Below, piece by piece: positions 3,348 to 40,135 of a DNA stretch of 64,000 bases. The translations under genes and the position numbers were made by a program. The notes beneath the pieces are model-generated. The model saw only the letters and a program-made list of their open reading frames with translations. It was not told where the DNA came from and made no database searches. This stretch comes from Mobula hypostoma. Its lineage: Eukaryota. Position 1 is the first letter of the stretch, and every line of letters begins with the position of its first letter. Location of the stretch: contig NC_086107.1 in assembly GCF_963921235.1 (NCBI RefSeq), forward strand, positions 95,668,001-95,732,000, read 5' to 3'.

Positions 3348-4202
3348 TGTTACGGACCCCGTAACTGGGTTGCCAAACCAGCAGAAATGGACCACTTAGT
3401 TGGAGTCTGGATTACTGGAACTAAGAAAGTTTTATTAAAGAAATAAGCAACACAGTACTCTAATCAAAAGGATATAAATGCAACAGTTTAGCAATGATAA
3501 AACACACATGTACACAGAACTAGGATAATAGGATCAATCAAGCTCTATCGCAGTCTAGGGGTAAATGATCAGTTTCAAGTGACGCAAAGTTCAGTTCAAT
3601 TTAGTTCAGTTCGCAGTAATCGCTGTTGTGCTGTTGGGCGGGGAGAAGAGAGAGAGAGAGAACGAATGAATATGCAAATCGGATTCCAAACAGACCTTCG
3701 ATATTCCTCGCAGTTAGCTTTCGGGCGAGCCCTTTGTAATGACTTCTGAGGTCACCGACTGTGACCCCTCCGTTCCAGATACGATCGTTCTTCTGCGGTG
3801 AACCCGGCACCCAGGCAAGGGCGGACACACACACACCAGGTTCCCGCCCGACCGTATCTTTCCACCCTGTGCGCCTATGGCTGGTCCCGCGACCAAACCT
3901 CCAAAAACTCCCACCAACTTGTGGGGGGGGGGGGGGGCACACCGCTTCCAGGGTCTCGTTACCTAGTGGTGTCGTGTGTCTGTTGCCTTAGCGAACCTGT
4001 CCCTTTTTATCCCCCTGCTGGGGTATTGCCTGTCCATCAAACTTCAAACAGTTCAGGGTTCAAAGCCACCGGTCTCTGACAATACTCGGAACCGTGTCTC
4101 CTTTCGGTAATCTCTCTCGTCTCTCTCTTATTAGCACCTTGCATGTTCCCCCATTGTCCTCTTATCGGCATCAATCTTCTGATAACTGGTTCTTTTGTCA
4201 CA
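3348..4202 (-). mobile_element. Solo LTR (855 bp) inserted in a CR1 fragment
   Basis: TGTTAC...GTCACA termini; 4-bp TSD CTGG (3344-3347, 4203-4206); CR1 sequence resumes on both sides; AATAAA on the minus strand near 3431. Confidence 0.85.
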
Positions 4203-8249: not shown

Positions 8250-9895
8250 TTGGATGGTGAGGACAATATGAGTCAGGTTGATGTTCTGGAGCATGTTGAT
8301 ATTAAGAGAGAGGAGGTGTTGGAGTTGTTAAAATACATTAGGACGGGTAAGTCCCTGGGGCCTGATGGAATATTCCCCAGGCTGCTGCACTAGGCGAGGG
8401 AAGAGATTGCTGAGCCTCTGGCTAGGATTTTTACGTCCTCGTTGTCCACGGAAATGGTACCGGAGGATTGGAGGGAGGCGAATGTTGTCCCCTTGTTCAA
8501 ACAAGGTAGTAGGGATAGTCTGGGCAATTATAGACCAGTGAACCTTACGTCTGTGGTGGGAAAGCTGTTGGAAAAGATTCTTACAGATAGGATCTCTGGG
8601 CATTTAGAGAGTCATGGTCTGATCAGGGACCGTCAGCATGGCTTTGTGAAGGGCAGATCGTGTCGAACAAGCCTGATAGAGTTCTTTGAGGAGGTGACCA
8701 GGCATATAGATGAGGGTAGTGCAGTGGATGTGATCTATATGGATTTTAGTAAGGCATTTGACAAGGTTCCACATGGTAGGCTTATTCAGAAAGTCAGAAG
8801 GCATGGGATCCAGGGAAGTTTGGCCAGGTGGATTCAGAATTGGCTTGCCTGCAGAAGGCAGAGGGTCGTGGTGGAGGGAGTACATTCAGCTTAGAGGATT
8901 GTGACTAGTGGTGTCCCACAAGGATCTATTCTGGGACCTCTACTTTTGGTGATTTTTATTAAAAACCTGGATGTGGGGGTAGAGGGGTGGGTTGGCAAGT
9001 TTGCAGACGACACAAAGGTTGGTGGTGTTGTAGATAGTGTAGAGGATTGTCGAAGATTGCAGAGAGACATTGATAGGATGCAGAAGTGGGCTGAGAAGTG
9101 GCAGATGGAGTTCAACCCGGAGAAGTGTGAAGTGGTACACTTTGGAAGGACAAACTCCAAGGCAGAGTACAAAGTAAATGGCAGGGTACTTGGCAGTGTG
9201 GAGGAGCAGAGGGATCTGGGGGTACATGTCTACAGATCCCTGAAAGTTGCCTCACAGGTGGATAGGGTAGTTAAGAAAGCTTATGGAGTGTTAGCTTTCA
9301 TAAGTCGAGGGATAGAGTTTAAGAGTCGCAATGTAACGATGCAGCTCTATAAAACTCTGGTTAGGCCACACTTGGAGTACTGTGTCCAGTTCTGGTCACC
9401 TCACTATAGGAAGGATGTGGAAGCATTGGAAAGGGTACAGAGGAGATTTACCAGGATGCTGCCTGGTTTAGAGAGTATGCATTATGATCAGAGATTAAGG
9501 GAGCTAGGGCTTTACTCTTTGGAGAGAAGGAGGATGAGAGGAGACATGATAGAGGTGTACAAGATAATAAGAGGAAATAGATAGAGTGGATAGCCAGCGC
9601 CTCTTCCCCAGGGCACCACTGCTCAATAGAAGAGGACATGGCTTTAAGGTAAGGGGTGGGAAGTTCAAGGGGTATATTAGAGGAAGGTTTTTTACTCAGA
9701 GAGTGGTTGGTGCGTGGAATGCACTGCCTGAGTCAGTGGTGGAGGCAGATACACTAGTGAAATTTAAGAGACTACTAGACAGGTATATGGAGGAATTTAA
9801 GGTGGGGGGTTATATGGGAGGCTGGGTTTGAGGGTCGGCACAACATTGTGGGCCAAAGGGCCTGTAATGTGCTGTACTATTCTATGTTCTATGTT
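8250..9895 (+). mobile_element. CR1 LINE reverse transcriptase region to 3' tail (pseudogenised)
   Basis: YRPVNLTSVVGKLLE, QHGFVKGRSC, YMDFSKAFDKVPH, GVPQGSILGP, FADD; in-frame stops near 8391 and 8892; (TATGTTC)n tail. Confidence 0.95.
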
Positions 9896-10604
9896 TATTT
9901 ACTGAGTCTACCCACAAGAAAACAAACCTCAGGATTGGATATGGCGACGTATATAAATAAACTTACTTTGAACTTTGGACCATTCCCTATCTGCATGCAG
10001 CAAGAGCTGGAGAACTTTAACAATACAAACAGAAATTCCTGGAAGAACTCACTTCAGGCTGAAGACACCCCACATGACTATTCCTCCTCCCACAGATTCA
10101 GTCTCCTTCCAACATTTTGATTTTGTTTTAGATTTCTAATATTTACCAGTTTGCTTAGATTTTCGTGACAGAGCATTCCAACAGCACGTGCATTTCATGT
10201 CACAGACGTAGGGACACAGATCAAGCCTGACCTAGTCCAAACCCATCTTTTTGCCCATTGACAAATTCCATTTGCCTAAATTAGGAATGTATCCTTCGAT
10301 ATTTTAGAAATAGCTTCTTCCCCTCCGCTATGAGATTTTTGAATTGTTCATCTACTTTCCTCTGCTTTTGTACTAATTATTTATTATAACAGCCATTTAT
10401 GTATTGCATTGTACAGCGGTGGCAAAATGACATTTCAAGATATATGGCACGTCAGTGATAATAGGTTAGCAGGTTAATTGGCCATTGTACATTGTATTGT
10501 GATTAAGCTAGTATTAAACAGGTGGTTGCTGGGTGTTGTACTGCGTCTGTACTGCACTGTATCTCTAAATAAATACATAATAAACTTAACTCTAATGTCC
10601 ATCT

Positions 10605-10802
10605 GGGGTGTATGGGGTGTCCAGGGAGGGGTAGCACCTCTGGTGGGGGGGGGAGGGGGCTACCATGCCCTTTTCAGGGCAGCTCATCCACCTTTGGTCC
10701 CCACCTGGCGCTCAACTCTCACCTGTGGCTCCAAGTAGTTGTAGCACGCGCAGCGGCCACACCCCGGTAAACCGTCTCGGCACACAGGCCAAACCAGGTG
10801 AG
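10605..10802 (+). ncRNA. HDV-like self-cleaving ribozyme (predicted)
   Basis: P1 GGGGTGT 10605-10611 / ACACCCC 10759-10765; P2 CTCACCTG 10718-10725 / CAGGTGAG 10795-10802; P3 GGC 10727-10729 / GCC 10756-10758; P1.1 CC 10731-10732 / GG 10766-10767; J4/2 CCAA 10789-10792. Folded by eye. Confidence 0.7.
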
Positions 10803-11144
10803 GGTAGCCGATGGGTCTTTGACCCTCGGCGAGGTAGGGGATCTGCCTGTCCCAACGTGTGAAGTCTGGCCCTGGTAGATTGAGCGGAGGAGACTGATTA
10901 ATGGTCCAACGGTCAAGAAGGCAGGGCCAGCGGGCGTGGTGGAGTGCTAAGAGCACGGGAAGACACTTAGACGTCCTGGTCATCCATTGCAAGAGGTGGT
11001 GATCTCTTTAAGCTCACCCGGCAGTAGGCAAAGGCAAACCACTGCTGTAACCTGCCACGAACATGATTTCCCAATATGTCAGAGCGGCGTGGAGGGAAAT
11101 TATCCGCCAACTGGAAATTCCAGATGCGACCTAAAGCGAGCGAG
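10605..11144 (+). mobile_element. Short non-autonomous retroposon with an HDV-like ribozyme head and RTE-like 3' end
   Basis: 8-bp TSD TGTCCATC (10596-10603, 11145-11152); RTE/BovB-like 3' motif GGCAAACCACTGCTGTAACCTGCC; no A/B boxes seen. Confidence 0.8.
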
Positions 11145-11419
11145 TGTCCATCGAAGTGCCTTTTAAATGCAGTAATTGTATCTGACTGTATTGTGTAAAA
11201 AGAGAATTGCCCTCAAATTCCTCTCACTTTAAAACTTTGCTCTGACTTCCGACATCTCACTGTCCATGCCTCTCACAACCTTACATTCTTCCAACAAGTC
11301 ACTCTCTGTCACGACCTCCTTCACTCCATGGAAGGCAAACCAGGCCTATCCAACCCAGGCACTGTCCCCGTGAATCTTGGCCGCGCTCTGTCCCACGTTC
11401 TTGCTGGGGTGCGGCTAAC

Positions 11420-11720
11420 AGCTTCTTCTTCATGTGCCTTGCATGTTATACGCTTGGGCGATCACATCTGTCCACATCGAACGATCCCTCGCAGCGTCAA
11501 TGATATCTCGCACACTTAGATCTGTTAGTTCTTTCAGTGTCCATATATTTTCTTCTTAGCCTTCCTCTTCCGTGTTTACCAGGCATATGGCCTTGTAATG
11601 TAAGGCATTCTATTTCTCCCTTTCTGATGACATGGCCCAGGAATTTAAGTTTCCTCTCGTTTGATGTTCTCATTTTTGTATGGGCACATTGGAGTACTGT
11701 CTCATTAGTTACCCTATCTC
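11420..11720 (-). mobile_element. RTE-clade LINE 3' ORF fragment
   Basis: Minus strand: RKLKFLGHVIRKGEIECLTLQGHMPGKHGRGRLRRKYMD...ARDRSMW, a typical RTE C-terminus. Confidence 0.75.
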
Positions 11721-21579: not shown

Positions 21580-23700
21580 ATCAAAATCAGATTTATTATC
21601 ACTGTCATAATGTCATGAAATTTGTTTTGTGGCAGCAGTTCATATAAATTTACTGCAAGTTAAAATAAGAAATATATGAAAACTTTAAAAGAGCAAAATA
21701 GTGATGTAGTGTTTATGGGTCAATGGAGCATCAGAAATCTGATGTGGGAGGGTAGGAAACTATTCCTAAAACGTTGAGCGTGCGCCTTCAGGCTTGGTAT
21801 CACTCTCTGATGGTGGCAGTGAGAAGTGGGCATATTCTGGGTGGTAAGTGCCCTTATAATGGGAAACACATTTCTGAGGCACAGTTTTTAAAGGTGTCCT
21901 CGATGGTGCGGAGGCTTGTGCCCATGATGGAGCTGGTTGAGTCTACAACCCTCTGTAACGCTTTTTAGTCCTGTGTATTGACACCTCGATACCAGTCGTT
22001 AATGCAAAAGACAACAAATTCTGCAAATACTAAATAAATAAATAAACAACAAATATCGAGAACATGAGATGAAGAGTCCTTGGGTTGTGAGAACATTTCA
22101 GTGCTGGGGTGAGTGAAGTTATCCCCTCTGGTTCAGGAGGCTGATGGTTGAAAGTAATAACCCGGTAGTGTGGGACCTGGGTCTCCTATACCTCTGTCCT
22201 GATGGCAGCAGTGAGAAGAGAGCATTGCCTGGAAGGTGGGGGTCCTTGGTGATGGATACTGCTTTCTTGTGACAGTGTTCCTTGTAGATGTGCTCAACGG
22301 TGGGGAGGGCTTTACCCGTGGTGGACGAGGTCATATCCATTACTTTTTGTAGGCATTTCCATTCAAGGGCATTGGTGTTTCCACACCAGGCCATGGTGCA
22401 ACCAGTCAATATTCCCTCCACCACACACCTATGGAAGTTTGTCAGAGTTTTAGCGGACACGCCAAATCTTTGCAAACTTCTAAGAAAGTAGAGCTGCTGT
22501 CGTGCCTTCTTTGTAATGGCACTTGTGTGTTGGAGCCTCTGAAATAAATATGCCGAGGAATTAAAAGTTGCTTACCCTCTCCACCTCTGATCCCTCAATG
22601 AGGACAGCCTCATGGACCTTGAGTTTCCTCCTCGGGAAGTCAGTGATCAGCTCCTTGGTCTTGCTGACATTGAGTGAGAAGTTGTTGTTGTGGCACCAGT
22701 CTGTCAGATTTTCAATCTCCCTCCTGTATGCTGATTCATCACCAGCTTTGATTCGGCCAATGACAGTGATGCCTTTGGCAGACTTAAATATGGCTTTGGA
22801 GCTGTGCTTAGCCTCACAATCATAAGTGTAAAGTGAGTAGAGCAGGGGGCTAAGCACACAGCCTTGTGGTACACCTGTGTTGATGGAGATTGTGGAAGAG
22901 ATGTTGTTGCCAATCTGAACTGACTGGGATCTGCAAGTGAGGAAATCCAGGATCCAATTGCACAAGGAGGTATTGAGGCCAAGGTCTTGGAGCTTATAGA
23001 TTAGTTTTAAAGAGGGGTTAGTATCGACTGCCAAGCTGTAGTCGATAAAGAGCATCCTGATGTATGCATCTTCGCTGTCCAGATGTTCCAGGGTTGAGCG
23101 AATAGCCAGTGAAATGGCATCTCCTGCTGAGTTGTTGTAAATGTAGGCAAATTGGAGTGGATCCATGTCTCTTCTCAGGCTGGAGTTGAAATATTTCATC
23201 GCCAACCTTTTAAAGCATTTAATCACAGTGGATGTAAGTGCCACTGGACGGAAGTATTTGAGGTACGTTACCATGTTCTTCCTGGGCTCTGGTATAATTG
23301 AGGCCAGCTTAAAATAAATGGGTACCTCAGACTACCGAAGCGGGAGGCTAGAGATCTCAGTGAACACTCCAGCCAGTTGATCAGCACAGGTCTTTAGTGC
23401 TCGGCCAGCTACCCAGTCTGGGCTGGATGCTTTCTGTGGGTTCACCCTGCTGAAGGATGCTCTCAGAGACTGAAATCACAGGGTCATCGGGAGCTGTGGG
23501 AGCTCATGAAGGTGCCTCCATGTTTTGTCGGTCAAGAGGCGTTGAGCTCATCTGGGAGTGAAACCTTGTTGTCACATAAGTTGCTTGGTTTTACTTTGTA
23601 CGAGGTGATGGCATTCAAGCCCTGCCACAGCTGACAAGCATCCTTCAGCGATTCAAGTTTGGTCTGGAATTTCCACTTCGCATGTAAGATGGCACTGCAT
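21580..23700 (-). mobile_element. Rex1/Babar-type LINE (RT and 3' region), degraded
   Basis: ORF 22561-23274: RPVALTSTVIKCF, DPLQFAY, YIRMLFIDYS, GVPQGCVLSPLLYSLYT; ORF 22119-22475 gives the C-terminus. Confidence 0.9.
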
Positions 23701-30599: not shown

Positions 30600-32513
30600 A
30601 GACCATAAGACATAGGAGCAGAATTAGGCCATTCAGCCCATCGAGTGTGCTCCACCATTTCATCATACTCAACTCCATACACCTGCTTTCTCGCCATATC
30701 CTTTGATGCCCTGACTGATCAGGAAACAATCAACTTCCACCTTAAATATACGCATGGACTTGGCCTCCACTGCAGTCTGTAGCAGAGCATACCACATATT
30801 CACTACTCTCTAGTGAAAAACATTCCTCCTTACCTCTGTTTTAAAGGGTCGCCTCTCAATTTTGAGGCTGTGCCCTCTAGTTCTGGATACCCCCACCATA
30901 GGAAACATCCTCTCCATATTCACTCAATCTAGTCCTTTCAACATCTGGTAGGTTTCAATGAGATTCCACCCACCCCCCCATATTCTTCTAAATTCCAGAG
31001 AATATAGGCCCAAAGCTGCCAAACACTCTCATTTGTTAACCCCTTCATTCCTGGAATCATCCTTGTGAATCCGCTCTGGGCTCTCTCCAATGACAACACA
31101 TCCTTTCTGAGATTTGGGGCCCAAAACTCTTAACAATACTCCAAGTGCGGTCTGACAAGTGTCTTATAAAGGCTTAGTGTTATCTCCTTGCTTTTATATT
31201 CTATTCCCCTTGGAAGAAATGCCAAAATTTCATTTGCCTTCTTTACCACAGACTCGACCTGTAAATTAACCTTCTGGAAGTCTTGCACGAAGACTCCTAA
31301 ATCCCTCTGCACCTCTGAAGTTTGAACCTTCTCCCCATTTATTTAATAGTCCGCATTATTCTTCCTTTTACCAAAATGCATTATCATACATTTCCCAACA
31401 CTGCATCTGCCACTTTTTTGCCCATTCTTCCAATTTGTCTAAGTTCTGCTGCAATTGCATTGCTTCCTCAGCACTACCTACCCCTTCACCTATCTTTGTA
31501 TCATCTGCAAACTTTGCCACAAAGCCATCAATTCCATTTTCCAAATCATTGACAAACAATGAGAAAAGTAGCAGTCCCAATACTAACCCCTGAGGAACAC
31601 TGCTAGTCAACCAAAAAAGACCCCTTTTATTCCCACTTGCTGTTTCCTGCTTGTCAGCCATTCTATCCATGCCAGTATCTTTCCTGTAAAGCCATAGTAT
31701 TTTATATTGTTAAGCAGCCTCATGTGTGGCACCTTATTAAATGCCTTCTGAAAATCCAAGTAAATGACATCCACTACCTCTCCTTTGTCTACCCTGCTTG
31801 TTACTTCCTTGAAGAACTCTTAACAGATTTGTTAGGCAAATTTTTCCTTTACAGAAACCATGCTGACTTTGACTTATTTTATCATTAGTCGCCAAGTACC
31901 CTGAAATCTCATCTTTTATAATGGACTCCAACACTTTTCCAACCATTGAGGTTAGGATAACTGGCCTATAATTCCCTTTCTTTTGCCTACCTCCCTTCTT
32001 AAAGAGTGGAGTGACATTTGCAATCTTCCTCTGGGACCATGCCAGAATCAAGTGATTCCTGAAAGACCATGACCAATGCATCCAATAATCTCTTCTGACT
32101 ACACAATGCCCATATCCTTCCATTTTCCTCACATTCAGGTGCCTTTCTAAACATCTCTTTAAAGTTTCTAATGTTTCTGCCTCTACCAACACCACAGGCA
32201 GTGCATTCCAGGCACCCACCACACCCTCTGTGTAAAAATACTTGCCCCTCACAGCTCCTTTCATATTGCACCCCCCCCACCTTAAATGTGTGCCCTTTTG
32301 TATTAGACATCTTTGGAAAAAGACATTGTCTGTCTATTCTATCTATGGCTCTCATAATCTTAAAAAACCTCGATCAGATCTCCTCACAGTCTCTGACACT
32401 CCAGAGAAAACCACCCAAGTCTGTCCAGCCTCTCACGTGTGCTCTAATCCAGGCAACATCCTGGTAAATCTCTTCTGCACTCTCTCCAACGGCTCAACAA
32501 CCTTCCTATAATG
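30600..32513 (-). mobile_element. Nested CR1 LINE fragments
   Basis: KFADDTK, LYKTLVRPHLEYC, NYRPVILTSMVGKVLE; the younger copy continues at 34764-35770 after the hAT insertion. Confidence 0.9.
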
Positions 32514-38210: not shown

Positions 38211-38821
38211 CACTTTTCCTTTTTCTTCTTGACTAAATTTTTCACCTCTCTCAATATCCATGGTTCTCTTACCTTGCTATCCCAGTGCTTTCTCCTTATT
38301 GGAACCAACTTGTCCTGTATTCTGTGCAGTTAGCCTTTAAACCCTCTCCACATGTCAGATGTGGACTTGCCAAACGTTCCCAATTAACTCTCCCTAGTTC
38401 CTGCCTAATAGGCATCCATTAGTCTCGTGAGACCATGAATTTGTGCCTTGGAAGGTTTCCAGGGCGCAGGCCTGAGCAAGGTTGTATGGAAGACTGGCAG
38501 TTGCCCATGCTGCAAGTCTCCTCTCTCCACGCCACCGATGTTGTCCAAGGGAAGGGCACTAGGGCTGATACAGCTTGTCACCAGTGTCATCACAGAGCAA
38601 TATGTGGTTAAGTGCCTTGCTCAAGGACACAACATGCTGCCACAGCTGAGGCTTGAACTAGCGACCTTCAGATCACTAGACTGATGCCTTAACCACTTGG
38701 CCATGCACCAACATATCCTGCCTAATGGTCTTGTAATTTTGCCCTGCTCCATTTTAATTCTCTCCCGCAAAGTTCATACTTATCCTTATACCATCTTAAA
38801 ACTTAACAAGTTGTGGTCATT

Positions 38822-40135
38822 GCAACACTCACAACACGCTGGAGGAACTCAGCAGGTCGGGCAGCATCTGTGGAAAAGATCAGTCGACGTTTTGGGCCGG
38901 AATCCTTCGTCAGGACTGTAGAGGGAAGGGGCAGAGGCTCTATAAAGAAGGTGGGGGGAGGGTGGGAAGGAGAAGGCTGGTAGGTTCCAGGTGAAAAACC
39001 AGTAAGGGGGAAGATAAAGGGGTGGGGGAGGGAAAGCAAGGAGGTGATAGGCAGGAAAGGTGAAGAAGGAATAGGGGAAAACACAATGGGTAGTAGAAGG
39101 AGGCGGAACCAAGAGGGAGGTGGTAGGCAGCTGGGGGAGGGGGCAGAGTGACATAGGGATAGGGGAAGGGAGGGGGAGGGAATTACCGGAAGTTGGAGAA
39201 TTCTATGTTCATACCAAGGGGCTGGAGACTACCTAGACGGTATATGAGGTGTTGCTCCTCCAACCTGAGTTTAGCCTCATCATGGCAGTAGAGGAGGCCA
39301 TGTATGGACATATCTGAATGAGAGTGGGAAGCAGAGTTGAAGTGGGTGGCTACTGGGAGATCCTGTCTGTTGTGGCGGATGGAGTGGAGGTGCTCGACAA
39401 AGCGGTCCCCCAATCTGCGTCGGGTTTCACCGATGTAGAGGAGGGCGCACCGGGAGCACCGGATGCAATAGATGACCCCAACAGACTCACAAGTGAAGTG
39501 TTGCCTCACTTGGAAGGACTGTTTGGGACCCTGAATGGTGGCAAGAGAGGAGGTGTAGGGACAGGTGTAGCACTTGCGCTTACAGGGATAAGTGCCAGGT
39601 GGAAGGTCCGTAGGGAGGGACATGTGGACCAGGGAGTCGCGGAGGGACTGATCCCTGCGGAAGGCGGAGAGGGGTGGAGAGGGAAAAATGTGCTTAGTGG
39701 TGGGGTCCTGTTGAAGGTGGCGGAAGTTGCGAGGATAATGTGTTGGATCCAGAGGCTAGTGGGGTGGTAGGTGAGGACAAGGGGAACTCTGTCCCTGTTG
39801 TGGTGGCGGGAGGATGGGGTGAGAGCCGAAGTGCGGGAAATGGAGGAGATGCGGGTGAGGGCATCATTGATGACAGCAGAAGGGAAACCACGATCCTTAA
39901 AGAAAGAGGACATTTGAGATGTCCTGGAACAGAAAACCTCATCCTCAGAGCAGATGCGGCGGAGACGGAGGAACTGGGAATAGGGAATGGCATTTTTGCA
40001 TGTGGTAAGGTGGGAAGAGGTATAGTTGAGGTTGTTATGAGAGTCAGTGCGCTTGTAGAAGATGTCAATGGACAGTCTGTCTCCAGAGATGGAGACCGAG
40101 AGATTGAGAAAGGGGAGAGAAGTGTCCAAGATAGA
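38822..40135 (-). mobile_element. Penelope-like retroelement 3' part (RT thumb, GIY-YIG endonuclease, terminal repeat)
   Basis: ORF 39183-39623 GVIYCIRCSRCALLYIGETRRRLGDRFVEH; ORF 39506-40201 LPFLNLSVSISGDRL...KNAIPYSQFLRLRRICS; a frameshift separates them. Confidence 0.92.
38881..38918 (-). ncRNA. Minimal type I hammerhead ribozyme of the Penelope element, G12 mutated
   Basis: Minus strand CAGUC-CUGACGA-A-GGAUUCCGGCCC-AAAA-CGUC-GACUG; stem I CAGUC/GACUG; palindromic ACGU stem III. Confidence 0.75.

Follow-up and report, generated by a model that had tools for sequence, protein, structure and literature searches.

At positions 10605-11144 on the plus strand of the 64,000-nucleotide stretch of Mobula hypostoma DNA analysed here (contig NC_086107.1, 95,668,001 to 95,732,000; the whole stretch is called the window), we found a 540-bp non-coding retroposon that belongs to a superfamily resembling short interspersed elements (SINEs). 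That this superfamily is real and that its head is not of the RNA polymerase III (Pol III) type is close to certain. [quoted passage not shown] On this model the head is rather likely an HDV-like ribozyme that carries a ~100-nt hairpin in the joining segment J1/2 and a 17-19-nt hairpin in the 3' part of the loop L3. The window copy itself is an old, decayed insertion with a damaged P4.

Genomic copies and ends of the element

Searching the 3.48-Gb assembly with the element returned at least 4378 first-look candidates, and the identity figures for this family, which we call A, come from the 40 scored matches among them (window copy included). The 39 other scored copies are 89-92% identical to the window copy (~90% overall), and the copies have common 5' and 3' ends. 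In the window, the element lies between a left target-site duplication (TSD), TGTCCATC at 10596-10603 followed by a single extra T at 10604, and a right one, TGTCCATC at 11145-11152, both on the plus strand and found by a repeat search. An 8-nt TSD alone is weak evidence, because 13 families of direct repeats of at least 8 nt occur in the same 1 kb around the element. TSDs are found family-wide: an exact flanking repeat of at least 8 nt is present in 21 of 40 distinct full-length copies (at least 10 nt in 13 of the 40), and most of the repeats of at least 8 nt stop 0-1 nt before G1, the G at 10605.

Among 30 fetched copies aligned with their flanks, similarity stops upstream of GGGGTGTATGGGG, and the 3' ends read ...CCAGATGCGACCTAA and then (AGCG)n, (CGA)n, (CAA)n or (TGA)n. 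A whole-element search favours full-length copies, and start positions were re-sampled with the last 160 nt as the sole query. In this sample, 24/30 loci (window locus included) start at element positions 1-7, and the six 5'-truncated loci begin at positions 25, 48, 90, 227, 356 and 370. DNA contigs of another organism (run X5) mapped to the window have 200, 118 and 90 loose ends at 10604, 10605 and 10606, and those of run X9, also of another organism, have 130, 77 and 50 at the same three positions. Genome copies, TSDs and the pile-up of 5' ends agree, and both the family and its start at G10605 are hence real: these are non-coding, TSD-flanked, SINE-like retroposons with a sharp 5' end. A preliminary description of this DNA had proposed a 540-bp non-coding element between repeats and had named a pile-up of 5' ends at G10605 as a check; both were borne out. 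None of the plus-strand frames of the window copy looks like a protein. Being short, non-coding and TSD-flanked, present in many copies with shared ends and some 5' truncation, and ending in a tail of the type found in long interspersed elements (LINEs), the element has the character of a non-autonomous retroposon without long terminal repeats (non-LTR).

Rfam agreed with the preliminary description that the head is not derived from tRNA, 5S or 7SL RNA. At E<=10, no tRNA, 5S, 7SL, small nuclear RNA or ribozyme family matched 10300-11500, where there were only two weak hairpin-type matches (one of them miRNA-like, on the J1/2 hairpin); over the whole window and four copies of a sister family, B, the head again had no ribozyme, tRNA, 5S or 7SL match. 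A tRNA-like reading by eye of element positions 20-102 was rejected: it leaves no room for the T arm, and the Rfam tRNA model is silent there at E<=10. The A-family majority reads TTTTT in the apical loop of J1/2, where family B reads TTTT. A run of four to five T is a Pol III termination signal, and Pol III transcription of the head is therefore disfavoured by this conserved run. SINEs are usually defined by their Pol III head; lacking an Rfam match and containing an internal T4-T5 run, the element falls outside the strict sense of the term (a Pol III-derived head with an internal promoter). We infer that it is promoter-less, with an internal RNA polymerase II (Pol II) promoter as a possible alternative.

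Pairing in HDV order at the 5' end

A descriptor scanner purpose-written to seek the nested double pseudoknot in HDV order recovered P1, P2, P3, P3', P1', P1.1, P4, J4/2 and P2' in that order, starting at 10605 (all on the plus strand). P1 pairs GGGGTGT (10605-10611) with ACACCCC (10759-10765), element positions 1-7 with 155-161, in 7/7 Watson-Crick pairs; its 5' strand is also placed by the 5'-end pile-up, the proposed cleavage site lies 5' of G10605, and the unconstrained minimum free energy (MFE) fold of family A contains P1. J1/2 (10612-10717) is 106 nt long and appears in alignments and folding as a long hairpin, imperfectly paired, whose apical loop reads TTTT(T)CA. P2 joins CTCACCTG (10718-10725) to CAGGTGAG (10795-10802), element positions 114-121 with 191-198, in 8/8 pairs; RNAalifold also predicts it, extended to 11 bp with G-U pairs allowed. 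P3 pairs GGC (10727-10729) with GCC (10756-10758), element positions 123-125 with 152-154, and P1.1 pairs CC (10731-10732, inside L3) with GG (10766-10767), element positions 127-128 with 162-163; the scanner and the pair counts concur on both.

L3 spans 26 nt in the window copy (10730-10755) versus the usual 7-8 and reads UCCAAG, UA, an inserted hairpin (10738-10741 with 10751-10754) and G, as laid out by the alignment and by the descriptor excerpted from PMC6326823. P4 (10772-10787), identified by covariation, is a hairpin that pairs perfectly over 6 bp in the majority of 40 copies (CCGTCT, loop CGGC, AGACGG). It is followed by G and the J4/2 segment CCAAAC (together 10788-10794), with the candidate catalytic C at 10789 (element position 185), and then by P2'. 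In the window copy P4 is broken by two substitutions, C at 10783 and A at 10786; the family has G at both positions, as do nearly all contigs mapped to the window. The pairings of the preliminary description (P1 7/7, P2 8/8, a 3-bp P3, P1.1 as CC:GG and C10789) were all found as stated, as was its long and structured J1/2.

Two repetitions within the head were also observed. A second GGGGTGT lies at 10614-10620, 9 nt downstream of the 5' end, and is able to pair with the same P1'; no copy was observed to start at this duplicate, and in the RNAalifold prediction its partner is GGCRCTC, at the foot of the J1/2 hairpin. A CCAGG-GAGGGGTAGC-like motif occurs three times in imperfect form (10620-10637, 10730-10747 and 10794-10808), which may be the trace of an old internal duplication.

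The scheme is rare under a strict descriptor that allows Watson-Crick pairs only and asks for L3 of at most 30 nt, J4/2 of at most 7 nt with a C, GG after P1' and CC within the first four nucleotides of L3; its full form has P1 of 7 from nucleotide 1, P3 of 3 and P2 of 8. On both strands of the 64-kb window, any solution was found at 11/127,160 start positions, and P1 of 7 with P2 of 8 was reached at two of these only, 10605 and its internal duplicate 10614, both in the element. As a null, we used 1500 dinucleotide shuffles of the first 420 nt of the element with 120 start positions each; any solution arose at 63/180,000 positions, and P1 of 7 with P2 of at least 8 at 1/180,000 (about 6e-6 per position). 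A loose descriptor that tolerates G-U pairs is far less specific, with 187/127,160 window positions scoring as high. Hence, because the strict scheme is rare and its start position is fixed independently by the TSDs, HDV-order pairing by chance is unlikely.

Sister families provide a comparison. A gapped pattern made from two stretches of the window copy returned 15 copies with a different or shorter J1/2, and families B, C, D and E share the 5' module with family A. The shared module runs from element position 1 to ~385, terminates ...CATCCA(C/T)TGC in A, B and C, and gives way at ...CATCCACTGC to unrelated 3' modules; its remainder beyond the pairing scheme (the body, 10803-10992, from the family alignment) opens with a hairpin that changes compensatorily between families. 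With its 3' module as DNA query, family B gave 1443 candidates, of which 40/40 scored were 99-100% identical; with a 46-aa frame as query it gave 5136 candidates, of which 150/150 scored rows were 100% identical over 46 codons. Family B is very young and, judged from these identities, looks currently active. When B copies were picked by the 3' module alone, 4/6 start at G1 and 2/6 are truncated. Copies of B lie at loci L082, L083, L085 and L086, at L072 with L078 and at L068 with L080, and a frame that opens at an ATG near element position 295 continues past the 3' end into flanking DNA. Copies of family E, which is old, are 71-81% identical to the query. No diverged heads were found in the flanks of the fetched loci.

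Pairs were counted in an alignment of 24 sequences and in one of 32 that adds old E copies. P4 changes on both sides in 4/6 pairs of the former and 5/6 of the latter; its strands are CCGTCT/AGACGG in A, CGGCTT/AAGCCG in B, CCGCTT/AGGCGG in C and CCGCTT/AAGCGG in E, and at the column pair 184/193, for example, 20 rows have C-G and 9 have U-A. Family A forms the L3 hairpin with GCTG/CAGC, and family B, with GCTGT/ACAGC, has an extra T-A pair. Covariation over the whole structure is above that of each of 500 column shuffles and of every slid control, a signal due to P4 and, to a lesser degree, the L3 hairpin. The apical stem of J1/2 and the hairpin after P2' also alter compensatorily between families, the apical part of the J1/2 hairpin being changed or shortened in the sister families. 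P1, P2, P3 and P1.1 are paired in 82-97% of cells and essentially invariant, with departures confined to unpaired cells and single decayed copies. As for the covariation that the preliminary description had put forward as a check, P4 shows it, and P1, P2 and P3 are conserved.

Across families the fixed core consists of P1, P2, P3, U-C-C-N-N-G in L3, the GG and G-C-Y-A-A-A-C at J4/2. In the 24-row alignment T126, C127, C128, G131, C153, C154 and G184 are invariant, and at least 90% of rows retain G123, G124, G152, G163 and C185. Once the old E copies are included, conservation of most of these positions falls to 90% or more, and C185 drops out of this set. In its excerpted form, the published HDV descriptor has a G1-pyrimidine pair, two C-G pairs in P1.1, U, C and G in L3 (the U and G, five apart, forming a reverse wobble) and C-R-R-A in J4/2 (PMC6326823). 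The element has G1-C161 in A and B, and T opposite G1, giving G.U, in 9/9 E copies that keep the region (rows read by eye). For P1.1, C127 and C128 face G163 and G162, with pair counts of 23/24 and 16/24 rows, or 30/32 and 23/32 in the larger alignment, and the losses are at CpG. In L3, U126 and G131, invariant in the 24 rows, are present with the right spacing in all families; the C before G is present in B (UCCCCG) and is A in family A (UCCAAG). These core nucleotides appear, from the alignments, largely to fit the published descriptor, and the ribozyme reading is strengthened by the covariation of P4 between sister families and because the invariant nucleotides fall on positions that the descriptor fixes. 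The stretch after P1.1 reads GCAA in family B. Genomic HDV has GCAA at the same place, and the J4/2 of antigenomic HDV is C-U-A-A. As modelled, the head would thus agree with the HDV class in topology, G1-pyrimidine and P1.1, in part in L3 and J4/2, and not in matches to covariance models.

A ribozyme weighed against other readings

Several results weigh against a ribozyme. P1, P2, P3 and P1.1 show no covariation, and no compensation for an altered P1' was seen in single mutant copies, as expected of copies that are decayed and dead. L3 is 26-28 nt long across families, with a 4-5-bp hairpin and a 9-nt loop inserted after UCCNNG-UA; J4/2, CYAAAC with 6 nt, has Y where the descriptor has R; and in families A and B the partner of G1 is C rather than U. 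A check against Rfam HDV-family models, proposed at the outset, gave no match to A or B heads at E<=10; we assume that these models tolerate no insertions of ~100 nt and 18 nt. An inserted L3 hairpin is not known to us from any HDV-like ribozyme, though no search aimed at one was made. The nested MFE is no better than those of 200 dinucleotide shuffles, both for the window-copy head (z +0.14, 109/200 shuffles folding as well or better) and for the B head (z -1.02, 32/200). Conservation of the first 41 nt equals that of the putative core. RNAalifold, which draws no pseudoknots, predicts P2 and P4 and favours a nested alternative in which TGGCT (with the P3 5' strand) pairs with GGCYA, the candidate catalytic C included; such pairing would sequester both P3 and that C. 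Finally, no LINE carrying the A tail, the B tail or the head module was found with RVT_1, PF14529 or tail and module DNA and protein queries.

The conservation of the first 41 nt would also fit an internal promoter, and the rival that survives best is a structured RNA with such a promoter (Pol II-type, or dual like that of Pr77), transcribed from G1, in which the HDV pairing is non-catalytic or a relic. It would account for the missing covariation in P1, P2 and P3 and for the silence of Rfam; since a sharp 5' end is a feature of every SINE, cleavage cannot be read from the pile-up at G1 alone; and a single 5' sequence can combine the two functions, promoter and ribozyme, as trypanosomatid Pr77 does in the excerpts of PMC3383444. 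Set against this are the lack of likeness to tRNA, 5S or 7SL, the conserved T4-T5 run that would stop Pol III, the shuffle frequency of an HDV-order pseudoknot anchored at nucleotide 1 and the coincidence of the invariant nucleotides with the positions fixed by the HDV descriptor. We therefore regard an internal promoter without catalysis as unlikely, while placing it ahead of the other rivals.

A nested structure could instead be the functional one: a long P2 with the TGGCT/GGCYA closing junction, the L3 hairpin and P4 would serve as a stability element or bind a protein or reverse transcriptase. This is exactly the fold that RNAalifold draws, and the one-sided changes in it fit (G-U 14 versus G-C 8, U-G 19 versus U-A 5). 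The family B MFE contains P2 and not P1. In favour of the ribozyme, the unconstrained MFE of family A contains P1, and forced folds containing P1 or P2 differ by only 2-3 kcal/mol. The nested structure leaves unexplained the complementarities of P1 (7/7), GG/CC and GGC/GCC and an HDV order that begins at the exact 5' end, and we consider it improbable as a replacement for the pseudoknot. It may coexist as an inactive conformer, and HDV ribozymes do have competing alternative pairings. In this rival, the complementarity of nucleotides 1-7 to 155-161 would have another role or none.

Least probable of all is an internally deleted LINE derivative like the R2 SIDEs, with the module made of a LINE 5' untranslated region and the start of an open reading frame (ORF). 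This proposal agrees with ours on the ribozyme and differs on the origin of the module, so that whatever credence it deserves overlaps with that of a ribozyme head. The family B frame from the ATG is open for 68-293 aa in 150/150 scored copies, and the A tail starts with an apparent ORF end (...KRW stop). B copies at 100% identity in 150/150 rows are too young for an open frame to imply selection; frameshifting indels separate A and B inside the supposed ORF; A, B and C leave the module at the same point, unlike independent deletions; and no LINE with the module or tails was found. We consider such an origin very doubtful.

A self-cleaving head would place the element beside known systems. In the excerpts of PMC6765202, HDV-like ribozymes free the promoter-less non-LTR elements R2, RTE, baggins and L1Tc from co-transcripts. 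As modelled, the head shares with those ribozymes a nested double-pseudoknot order from the first nucleotide of the element, G1-pyrimidine, a CC/GG P1.1, U...G in L3, the J4/2 C and a variable, co-varying P4; by analogy with the accounts excerpted from PMC6765202 and PMC3774820, its role in releasing a promoter-less element would be the same. Its long J1/2 is matched in silkmoth R2 ribozymes, for which the excerpts of PMC3774820 give 216-498 nt. The head differs from the R2, RTE, baggins and L1Tc ribozymes in its 17-19-nt L3 hairpin (26-28 nt in total), in a 6-nt J4/2 with Y second, in G1-C rather than G.U in A and B, in lying outside the Rfam HDV models, in residing on a short non-coding element rather than a LINE, and in being known from sequence alone.

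Closer relatives in organisation are the R2 SIDEs of Drosophila, short non-coding elements with a 5' ribozyme and a LINE-recognised 3' end (PMC3774820, in part), and the NARTc/SIDER elements of trypanosomatids, which are ribozyme-headed non-autonomous retroposons (PMC3414825 and PMC3383444, both in part). Like them, our element is short and non-coding and combines a 5' ribozyme, here predicted, with a LINE-type 3' end. Unlike them, it has no parent LINE found with the same ribozyme, its head is joined to at least two unrelated 3' tails, its insertions are dispersed and not specific to ribosomal DNA, and it inhabits a chordate genome of 3.5 Gb in thousands of copies. With classical SINEs it has in common the head-body-tail organisation, TSDs, a sharp 5' end with some truncation, a tandem-repeat terminus and a tail common to another SINE family (a tRNA-headed SINE of the same genome); it departs from them in having no Pol III-type head, an internal T4-T5 run and a length of 540-600 bp. 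A literature search returned no ribozyme-headed non-autonomous family from a vertebrate-type genome, which is not proof of absence.

If the head cleaves, host transcripts could be cut by any of thousands of intronic or read-through copies that lie in the sense orientation, and the young B family would offer a natural, testable setting in which retroposons form without a promoter. The descriptors used in genome searches for HDV-like ribozymes, which miss this head, would then be widened by the hairpin inserted in L3.

Mobilisation and genomic surroundings

The 3' end of the window copy consists of a LINE-type tail module (10993-11134) and a short tandem-repeat terminus, AGCGAGCGAG (11135-11144, both plus strand), in whose place other copies have (CGA)n, (CAA)n or (TGA)n. 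A tRNA-headed SINE met by chance in locus L055/L061 (L061, reverse strand, ~1-360) has a tail with 76% identity to element positions 389-529. A pattern on the tail start gave 124 matches; by eye, the 100 listed comprise 74 of the tRNA-SINE type, 8 of the A type and 18 in a third context, the tRNA-SINE context being the commonest among those listed. Copying through target-primed reverse transcription by some LINE is well supported, since copies are flanked by TSDs, some are 5'-truncated, and the tail recurs in another SINE family. The short tandem-repeat terminus is compatible with an element mobilised by RTE, as is a putative likeness of the A tail to Bov-B/RTE tails. The preliminary description had proposed an RTE LINE as the mobilising partner; no LINE with the A tail was found with the queries named above.

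Several candidate partners were rejected. The third tail context is not a LINE as far as the two fetched members go: they share only 176 nt with the same start and have no Pfam domain nearby. This third short element (L113 and L114, reverse strand, ~3830-4010) starts ACGNGNGATGGCC... and joins the A tail after ...QEERW stop, and the 3' ends of its two copies differ. A young L1-like family with an ORF2 of 1264 aa, which dominates the RVT_1 hits, shares nothing with the element, and nor do two long PF14529 elements with an RNase H-like C-terminal motif (by eye). Among the 150 rows returned with the open frame of the tail as a protein query, no open frame exceeded 196 aa and no LINE appeared, and the B 3' module, as DNA and as protein query, returned only SINE-like copies. 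The L1-like family is itself of note: its example at L062 (G000:C1:196465200-196473000) is very young, with a 254-aa ORF1 beside its ORF2, and LINEs of this type, many with intact frames, dominate 332,530 RVT_1 first-look candidates. The PF14529 elements are two LINEs with frames of 1135 and 1257 aa (L099-L102; G000:C18:53741400-53746500 and G000:C5:26293400-26298900).

Taking the head as a ribozyme, a source copy would be transcribed within a longer host or read-through transcript. The ribozyme would fold and cut just 5' of G1, leaving an RNA that begins GGGGTGT, as the structure and the 5' ends of copies suggest. A partner LINE would then use the LINE-derived 3' tail and the short tandem repeat for target-primed reverse transcription, giving TSD-flanked copies. 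The 385-nt module would work as a portable head; its joining to different 3' tails is seen at the sequence level. We give about an even chance to the full proposal of a chordate superfamily in which a portable 385-nt self-cleaving HDV-like head of new architecture takes the place that a Pol III promoter has in ordinary SINEs and was joined by recombination to tails from different LINE partners, with at least one family active.

The first coding exon of a RAS gene lies on the minus strand at ~324-434, and the rest of the gene must lie left of the window. The plus-strand element is ~10 kb upstream of that exon in gene orientation. The preliminary description had called the element antisense to the RAS pre-mRNA; the opposite strands are as it said, and a place inside the transcription unit did not follow. 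Just upstream of the element lies another high-copy repeat (10437-10532), with word depth reaching thousands in 4/4 sequencing runs mapped to the window and fixed differences at 10496-10497.

Elsewhere in the window there are three LINE reverse-transcriptase fragments and one GIY-YIG fragment, at 8394-9584 (+), 22119-23331 (-), 31740-32333 (-) and 39186-39755 (-). One of the three LINE fragments has an ALKBH8_N-type C-terminal domain, and the GIY-YIG fragment is suggestive of a Penelope-like element. A match to the tRNA model at 38643-38705 (-), with 29.8 bits against an Rfam threshold of 29, may be the head of a tRNA-derived SINE.

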